Virus record (IMG/VR): IMGVR_UViG_2675903352_000004
Location: 1-12,195 of that record
Strand: one strand, 5' to 3'
Length of the DNA stretch: 12,195 bases
DNA from: a virus
Taxonomy: Duplodnaviria; Heunggongvirae; Uroviricota; Caudoviricetes
Both the position numbers and the translations under genes were made by a program. The notes beneath the pieces were generated by a model that was not told the DNA's origin, did not search any database, and worked only from the letters and a program-made list of their open reading frames with translations. Positions 9,285-9,528 of the stretch are shown piece by piece; position 1 is the first letter of the stretch; every line of letters begins with the position of its first letter.

Positions 9285-9417
9285 TTGGCTGCATAAATAA
9301 TATTTTAAGTTGCAAGTTGGCTATTCGTAGGAATAGAACCTTAGGCATGCTGAATGCGTTTTCTGAACATTGTTTTATAAACTGTGTCTGCTTGCTGTTG
9401 TGATCCTGCTTTTAGTG

Positions 9418-9528
9418 ATGGTGATGATGGATTTCACCAGCAGGATAATGTTGGTACTGACTGATGGCGCTCTGGTCTGCGGCATTGTGGTATTGCTGTG
9501 GCCTATGATGAAAAAACAGACTGAATAA
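9418..9528 (+). CDS. Candidate small hydrophobic peptide (33-36 aa depending on start: ATG 9418, 9424 or 9427), MVMMDFTSRIMLVLTDGALVCGIVVLLWPMMKKQTE. Single predicted transmembrane helix with a charged C-terminus.
   Basis: This short ORF is absent from the supplied track (below its size cut-off). A hydrophobic core followed by KKQTE is typical of small membrane peptides and type I toxins. GGTGATG lies just upstream of the internal ATGs. Confidence 0.3.
   Translation: MVMMDFTSRIMLVLTDGALVCGIVVLLWPMMKKQTE

Follow-up and report, generated by a model that had tools for sequence, protein, structure and literature searches.

A tciB (DUF3927) gene without its usual TerB-domain partner in the late cargo slot of a lambdoid prophage

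The DNA analysed here, hereafter the window, comprises positions 1 to 12,195 of the virus record IMGVR_UViG_2675903352_000004 (Caudoviricetes), and the gene in question is a small open reading frame (ORF) on its plus strand. This ORF starts with TTG at 9370, ends with TAA at 9526-9528 and encodes a protein of 52 amino acids (aa), MFYKLCLLAVVILLLVMVMMDFTSRIMLVLTDGALVCGIVVLLWPMMKKQTE, from 159 nucleotides (nt) including the stop codon. Its 5' boundary is set by an in-frame TGA (9364-9366), which is followed by ACA (9367-9369) and then by TTG 9370. A first-pass annotation had described a 36-aa peptide at this place, which is the same frame read from ATG 9418. It had rightly pointed out that the frame is open upstream to 9367 (the TGA ends at 9366, and the TTG start is at 9370) and that a longer product of about 53 aa was possible; the alignment of start codons across the family favours 52 aa.

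The coding sequence (CDS) at 9370-9528 (+) was assigned to tciB (DUF3927, PHROG 1470) from the reading of the ORF, Pfam and PHROG matches, the start codon alignment and the ratio of non-synonymous to synonymous substitution rates (dN/dS), and we regard its membership in the TciB/DUF3927 family as virtually certain. The protein scored 55.3 bits (E = 6e-15) with Pfam PF13064 (DUF3927), for which the gathering cut-off is 25, and matched PHROG 1470, 'TciB-like inhibition of cell division or resistance to colicin', with E = 2.5e-17. In tblastn searches of phage records it matched a phage 434 CDS annotated as 'TciB' with 94% identity, and phage P1 tciB with 53% identity over residues 21-52; in the P1 record, the name TciB is given 'by homology'.

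The sequence of E. coli UTME-14 covers 96% of the whole window at 98% identity and carries the same 159-nt CDS, with the TTG start, as WP_000499454.1 ('DUF3927 family protein'). tciB was present in 751 of 5426 complete E. coli genomes (approximately 14%), at a median of 6 places per genome, and up to 7 copies were seen in the O157:H7 records sampled; all 24 sampled E. coli records label it DUF3927 (PGAP 'DUF3927 family protein'). A profile search of 1.8 billion cluster representatives returned only 74 relatives at E <= 0.001, nearly all of 45-65 aa, and a scan of genome contigs only two loci, both on contigs of metagenome-assembled genomes labelled Veillonella sp. and Proteobacteria. Because the gene is present in Pfam, PHROGs, RefSeq and the phage 434 record, we count it as known and routinely annotated. 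Both the family and this particular gene (in phage 434 and RefSeq) are already known, and the finding of the ORF in itself adds little. Its earlier description as unannotated was correct for the length-filtered ORF track, but not for public records (phage 434, RefSeq, PGAP).

The length of the ORF alone is at chance level, as the same 700 bases hold ORFs of 50, 51, 57, 75 and 91 codons in various frames; we judged the ORF real because of homology and purifying selection, not because of its length. Pairwise dN/dS by the Nei-Gojobori method was 0.05-0.6 in every computable pair, and for distant lineages dS was saturated, with dN of 0.06-0.2. The clade of window-type loci (83 loci, 13 haplotypes) contained four synonymous and two non-synonymous polymorphic sites; both of the latter lie in the tail (K49E, T51N) and none in the hydrophobic core, and not a single frameshift or stop codon was found in the 83 loci. 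When the window was compared with the TerB-linked E. coli type, in which tciB follows a gene for a TerB-domain protein, dN/dS was 0.18 over codons 21-48 and 1.36 over codons 2-20, yet the latter remained strongly hydrophobic. In a neutral simulation with the same number of random base substitutions, only 0.15% of sequences stayed free of stops and as hydrophobic over codons 2-20. As this hydrophobicity was kept beyond the neutral expectation, codons 2-20 are likely to be translated, which argues for the 52-aa form. Taken together, these comparisons indicate that tciB is a genuine protein-coding gene under purifying selection. The first-pass proposal of an ORF at this place is thereby borne out by sequence reading, homology and selection, and that of a small conserved membrane-protein gene by homology, selection and the hydrophobic segments described below; the comparison of synonymous and non-synonymous changes that had been suggested as a check found the frame conserved and under purifying selection.

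A TerB-linked homologue with an identical family core, XECs205 of E. coli O157 Sakai, is called a translated novel small gene in a ribosome profiling study (PMC5597208). The same study gives, for growth in LB, 15.9 RIBOseq reads per kilobase per million mapped reads, a ribosome coverage value (RCV) of 3.01 and an ORF coverage of 0.56 (PMC5597208). Its PredictProtein row reads 'inner membrane' and then '2', which we take as the number of transmembrane helices (PMC5597208).

The position of the start codon was examined across 221 loci. At the aligned position, 210 of them have a start codon (GTG 126 times, TTG 83 times and ATG once), and those without one mostly start one codon away. The TTG of the window corresponds in the alignment to the ATG of P1 tciB and to the GTG that the common E. 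coli type uses; it is conserved throughout the 83 window-type loci, in all of which the frame is open exactly from the family-aligned start. The Pfam DUF3927 model aligns from residue 7 of the 52-aa protein (profile positions 7-50 of 53). Alternative in-frame starts within tciB are ATG 9418 (36 aa) and ATG 9427 (33 aa), with a further internal ATG at 9424. We consider it probable that the 52-aa form from TTG 9370 is the product.

The family has a conserved layout: a short basic stretch at the N-terminus (K/R at positions 4-6) and about 16 hydrophobic residues, then V-D-F-T-S-(R/K) and x-x-S-V-L-A-D-G in the middle, and finally about 12 hydrophobic residues, W-P and a basic tail. The window protein fits both this layout and the length of the family (approximately 50-64 aa), and in family alignments it holds K4, D21, F22, T23, S24, D32, G33, W44 and P45. 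Of these, D21 is replaced by E in three of 79 intact TciB ORFs retrieved with P1 TciA. Full-length TciB thus has two hydrophobic segments that flank the D-F-T-S motif, with a mean Kyte-Doolittle hydropathy of 3.4 over residues 5-20 and 2.2 over residues 26-46. The single transmembrane helix predicted earlier holds for the truncated 36-aa version, but not for the 52-aa product with its two segments. By the positive-inside rule, the basic ends and the acidic middle suggest an inner-membrane helical hairpin with both termini in the cytoplasm. No solved structure was found among the relatives.

In some TciB variants of Escherichia albertii (P0041, P0063, P0071 and P0072), the second hydrophobic segment contains tandem repeats that keep the reading frame. 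The repeat units are EAGGWRL (one to three times) and CGIVGLWD (two or three times), and the segment is less hydrophobic there, which suggests relaxed constraint or repeat-driven variation in that species.

Most relatives of tciB are found directly behind another gene. Among 214 loci with enough upstream sequence, a TerB/TciA-like gene overlaps the tciB start by 1-7 nt in 128, whereas 81 are of the window type, in which a PF27470 gene and a gap of 85 nt precede tciB. All of the diverse enterobacterial lineages inspected were of the TerB-coupled type. The upstream partner in the coupled loci is a TerB-domain protein (PF05099, E = 4e-16), and 79 of the 80 loci retrieved with P1 TciA have an abutting intact TciB ORF, the remaining one having an internal deletion. 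The overlap of the tciA stop with the tciB start, typical of the family but no part of the Pfam definition, is absent from the window. Judged from gene order, tciA and tciB form a tight two-gene cassette, which is present in the window as a TerB-less variant. In phage P1, tciA, tciB and tciC are non-essential, as determined by CRISPR interference (PMC10695390). TerB has been reported to associate with the membrane, to form a complex with the membrane protein TerC and to be part of Bunzi and Shango, two anti-phage defence systems (10.1101/2022.05.11.491447; PMC12054061); for the TerB-domain proteins of these systems, 'membrane surveillance' has been suggested (10.1101/2022.05.11.491447). In a PADLOC search, neither TciB nor the PF27470 protein was matched, and the match of the TerB partner was only marginal (E = 0.004).

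The gene for antiterminator Q (7665-8288, +; Pfam PF03589, E = 1.2e-57) lies upstream of tciB, an order shared with phage 434 and E. coli UTME-14. For this reason we place tciB in the late, Q-dependent transcription unit, in the cargo slot of a lambdoid prophage, in agreement with the prophage cargo locus proposed in the first-pass annotation. The module runs from Q through the PF27470 membrane protein, TciB, a small RNA (sRNA) of the STnc100/PasD family and a NanS-p-like esterase to the lysis genes.

The upstream neighbour of tciB, at 8568-9284 (+), encodes a polytopic membrane protein of PF27470 ('TfpB'), as identified from the precomputed annotation of its homologues. The longest ORF there (8526-9284) has 252 codons, but the family start is M15 (8568), which is invariant in the alignment and preceded by a Shine-Dalgarno sequence of -7.9 kcal/mol. 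An AlphaFold2 model of the protein (pLDDT 64) has about five long helices and a small C-terminal beta domain. The gene sits where other phages carry tciA, and its stop codon is separated from the tciB start by the 85-nt gap. Homologues lie beside eltAB (heat-labile enterotoxin) on plasmids of enterotoxigenic E. coli (ETEC) and beside lpxR in Citrobacter rodentium. Since no DUF3927 ORF follows the gene in these places, we regard the PF27470 gene as a juxtaposed cargo gene and not as a conserved partner of tciB. Ahead of it, a consensus scan found a sigma-70 promoter-like site at 8521-8550 (+; TTGTTA, a spacer of 18 nt, TG and TATCAT; 9 of 12 matches), although the number of such sites in the region was not above that in shuffled sequences. 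It is a possible moron promoter of the PF27470 gene and could also transcribe tciB.

The downstream neighbour is an STnc100/PasD-family sRNA gene at 9540-9774 (+), which scored 89.9 bits (E = 1e-18) with Rfam RF02076, the gathering score of which is 47. The match is full-length (model positions 1-206 of 206), begins 12 nt past the tciB stop codon, and lies on the same strand without overlapping it. Its 3' end coincides with an intrinsic terminator at 9745-9773 (+; an 8-bp stem with seven GC pairs at 9745-9763, then T7), found by a terminator scan, which is the first one downstream of tciB and the sole intrinsic one in the region. STnc100 is related to the PasD sRNAs of enteropathogenic E. coli and typically adjoins an esterase gene (10.64898/2026.05.13.724894). 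In the window, the esterase gene (NanS-p-like; DUF1737, SASA and DUF6645 by Pfam matches) is at 9864-11717 (+), and in related records it is annotated as a SASA-family esterase or a DUF6645 protein. In other lineages, STnc100 lies at a variable distance from tciB or is replaced by a plain terminator. As several lineages outside E. coli have a hairpin instead of the sRNA, we regard the tciA-tciB cassette and the sRNA as separate modules. Three viral contigs (L180, L181 and L184) have a GC-rich hairpin with a T-run directly after tciB and no STnc100.

The transition from tciB to the sRNA has further features. The stop codon of tciB is overlapped by a -10-like AATAAT (9524-9529), in place of which the TerB-linked type has a perfect TATAAT; there is no good -35 element. 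An ORF of 91 aa (9528-9803, +), the ATG of which overlaps the tciB stop (TAATG), runs through the sRNA; in this region phage 434 has an annotated 62-aa 'putative membrane protein' and RefSeq a pseudogene on the other strand. We rejected this ORF as a gene: its length is not conserved, read-through fusions end the frame after about 33 residues, and the region is that of the sRNA. Most likely, it is not a gene. A pair of 11-nt stretches with 91% complementarity joins 9429-9439, in the D-F-T codons of tciB (its most conserved part), with 9572-9582, in the conserved 5' part of STnc100 (TGGTGAAT). Both arms are conserved. However, the duplex energy of STnc100 with the tciB messenger RNA, calculated by RNAduplex for the window and for locus L001, was no better than that of shuffled sequences, of which 77% and 34% did as well or better, in what is a crude test for partners of about 200 nt. 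With energies within the range of shuffles, STnc100 was rejected as an antitoxin acting in trans.

The first-pass annotation had also seen in the peptide the architecture of a type I toxin and proposed to look for an antisense sRNA on the minus strand. The size and hydrophobicity of the product agree with a type I toxin, as it is a membrane peptide of fewer than 60 aa (52 aa). However, a Pfam scan at E <= 1 returned only DUF3927 and a chance-level match to LMP1, with no Hok, Ldr, Fst, TisB or Ibs family, and Rfam at E <= 1 gave no family on the minus strand over the ORF. A standard scan found no minus-strand promoter or terminator near the ORF, and a relaxed one only two weak minus-strand promoter-like sites, compared with 2.9 +/- 2.0 in shuffled sequences. 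With promoter, terminator and Rfam scans of the minus strand at chance level, an antisense RNA antitoxin was rejected on sequence grounds. Moreover, because most tciB genes are the translationally coupled second cistron of an operon, they differ from the free-standing, separately repressed genes of type I toxins. The toxin-like architecture therefore found no support in toxin families, antisense RNA features or the organisation of the operon-coupled family, nor did the minus strand hold an RNA family, a promoter above chance or a terminator; as judged by these scans, the locus is not a type I toxin-antitoxin system.

Farther from tciB, an Esr41-like match on the minus strand (11717-11798) directly follows the esterase stop codon, but its score of 47.5 bits (E = 1.7e-6) is well below the family gathering score of 102, and it may be a diverged Esr41 relative or only the Esr41 terminator. 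Inside the nin region, an ORF of 617 aa (3552-5405, -), a 'hypothetical protein' in related genomes, had no Pfam or PADLOC match; it is placed and oriented like a moron or defence-type insert. The nin region also contains, upstream of NinG, a gene for an HNH endonuclease (PF13392) with a weak AP2-like DNA-binding domain (5782-6429, +).

On balance, we favour as the best explanation of the locus as a whole, with slightly more confidence than doubt, that it is the tciB gene of a late accessory module of the phage 434 type, with a role as partner of a TerB-like protein, and that it is an orphan here. According to this explanation, TciB would be a membrane-embedded partner, either an anchor or a transducer, of the TerB-like TciA at the inner membrane, and the pair would serve an accessory, non-essential function at the cell envelope. 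This role is proposed because tciB overlaps the tciA stop, because the pair travels together, and because TerB has been reported at the inner membrane; as a mechanism it is tentative, and we would give it somewhat less than an even chance. In the window, tciA would have been replaced by an unrelated membrane-protein gene, leaving tciB as an orphan that starts with TTG and lacks a Shine-Dalgarno sequence. The orphan TciB would probably be weakly translated, its messenger being either the late transcript or one that begins at the promoter-like site (8521-8550), and may act alone or with TciA from co-resident prophages.

Several observations weigh against this explanation or parts of it. The proposed partner is absent in cis, as the window has no tciA. 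Its place is not filled by an obligate partner of another kind either: the PF27470 protein was rejected for such a role, as none of its homologues, on ETEC plasmids or in Citrobacter rodentium, is followed by a DUF3927 ORF. As for the 52-aa form, a Shine-Dalgarno sequence is missing before TTG 9370 (+0.4 kcal/mol), while one of moderate strength, GUGAUGGUG, with -5.8 kcal/mol to the anti-Shine-Dalgarno sequence, precedes ATG 9427, and a 33-aa single-helix product might be made instead. With regard to the hairpin, AlphaFold2 (alignment of 30 sequences) predicted one continuous helix over residues 2-51, with a pLDDT of 90 and a pTM of 0.46. The ribosome footprints of the Sakai homologue are low, and the reads may map to several copies. 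Finally, a literature search on DUF3927 and TciB found no functional study.

The strongest rival explanation gives TciB another role. TciB would be a membrane-active effector, and tciA-tciB an exclusion or abortive-infection module in which a TerB-like sensor controls TciB, a small membrane protein of two segments that perturbs the membrane; the TerB-less copy in the window would be a free-standing, weakly translated effector, toxin-like in action but not of type I. The tight pairing fits this possibility, as do the presence of TerB-domain proteins in the validated defence systems Bunzi and Shango, with the 'membrane surveillance' proposed for them (10.1101/2022.05.11.491447), the position in a moron slot of the late region and the dispensability for P1 growth; a TTG without a Shine-Dalgarno sequence would keep the level of the orphan low. 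However, PADLOC failed to match TciB and matched the TerB partner only marginally, genomes tolerate a median of 6 copies, and the purifying selection on this gene runs counter to the decay that one would expect of an orphan toxic effector. We consider this explanation rather unlikely. Its fuller version, that tciA-tciB is an undescribed two-gene exclusion or abortive-infection module and that prophages of the 434 type carry the effector alone, kept harmless by a TTG without a ribosome-binding site, seems quite improbable. If it were true, the first-pass annotation would have been right about toxin-like action, with regulation by means other than antisense RNA.

It is also unlikely that only a single-helix peptide of 33-36 aa is made from the ATGs at 9418, 9424 or 9427, with the hydrophobic codons upstream left untranslated. 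The contrast in Shine-Dalgarno strength between ATG 9427 and TTG 9370 would favour such a product, and so would the dN/dS above 1 over codons 2-20 in the comparison with the TerB-linked type. On the other hand, the frame is open from the family start, with the TTG conserved, in 83 of 83 window-type loci, the hydrophobicity of codons 2-20 is rarely reproduced in neutral simulations, RefSeq and phage 434 annotate the 52-aa form, and the Pfam model covers the protein from residue 7 onwards.

Very unlikely, in our view, is a decaying remnant, that is, a gene that lost its ribosome-binding site after the replacement of tciA and is now non-functional, its conservation being due to recent common origin or to constraint on the promoter of the adjacent sRNA. 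The TTG without a Shine-Dalgarno sequence and the 85-nt gap from the upstream gene could be read in this way; so could the 94-99% identity of window-type copies, which leaves little time for decay, the -10-like AATAAT across the stop codon, and the E. albertii relatives with in-frame repeat expansions and a degenerate second segment. Against it, synonymous sites in the clade outnumber non-synonymous ones by four to two with none of the latter in the hydrophobic core, the 83 loci are free of frameshifts and stops, and the hydrophobicity of the first segment has been kept since the split from the TerB-linked type. Least probable of all, and extremely so, is a type I toxin-antitoxin system with a small membrane toxin the translation of which is held off by an antisense or nearby sRNA: the small, hydrophobic product with its charged tail, an abundant Hfq-associated sRNA family 12 nt downstream and the 11-nt complementarity speak for it, but no toxin family or minus-strand RNA family was matched, minus-strand promoter-like sites are at or below chance and a terminator is missing there, the sRNA is co-directional and non-overlapping, and at a variable distance or absent elsewhere, its duplex energy with tciB is ordinary, and tciB genes normally occupy the distal position in an operon with translational coupling.

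The late-region cargo slot occupied by tciB is the one in which related phages carry Shiga toxin genes, and the tight pairing of tciA (TerB) with tciB, together with a natural TerB-less variant, offers a simple handle on phage TerB cassettes at the membrane.

Like the type I toxins Hok, Ldr, Fst, TisB, Ibs, ShoB and ZorO, which are located in the inner membrane, TciB is small and hydrophobic and has a charged end; the same location is predicted for it. In contrast to these toxins, it has two hydrophobic segments and not one, its sequence is unrelated, most members are coupled in operons, and no antisense or divergent sRNA was found in sequence scans. Class II holins and pinholins, for example S21 and the 933W-type holin of this phage group, are likewise small, have two hydrophobic segments and end in a charged C-terminus, and their genes precede the lysis genes in the late region. 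TciB resembles them in its size, its two hydrophobic segments, its charged C-terminus and its late-region position, but the sRNA and a 1.85-kb esterase gene separate tciB from the endolysin gene. TciB does not classify as a class II holin or pinholin, as it has no holin Pfam match, and a separate, genuine class II holin and a lysozyme are encoded about 2.6 kb downstream in related loci.

The closest known counterparts are TciB of phage 434 (OL657226.1, CPT_434_69) and the RefSeq protein WP_000499454.1, both the same 52-aa protein at 94% identity and with the same TTG start, in which only three C-terminal residues differ (KKQTE against KEQNE). The phage 434 module is also like that of the window: it comprises a Q82-like antiterminator, a 247-aa membrane protein, TciB, a short ORF over the sRNA region, a SASA esterase, a pinholin and a signal-arrest-release (SAR) endolysin. 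P1 TciB shares with the window protein the basic N-terminus, the first hydrophobic segment, VDFTS, SDG, the second hydrophobic segment, WP and the basic tail. However, P1 tciB abuts the TerB-like tciA and is followed by tciC, both of which are absent from the window, and it adjoins the C1-controlled ban region, away from the lysis genes, whereas the window copy lies in a Q-dependent late region. TerC is no relative of TciB, and the window copy is without any TerB gene. Nevertheless, both the TerC-TerB pair of the ter operon and the Bunzi TerB protein with transmembrane helices tie a TerB domain to the inner membrane, by a separate or a fused transmembrane element, and by analogy with them tciA-tciB may be a minimal split version of TerB and its membrane element.

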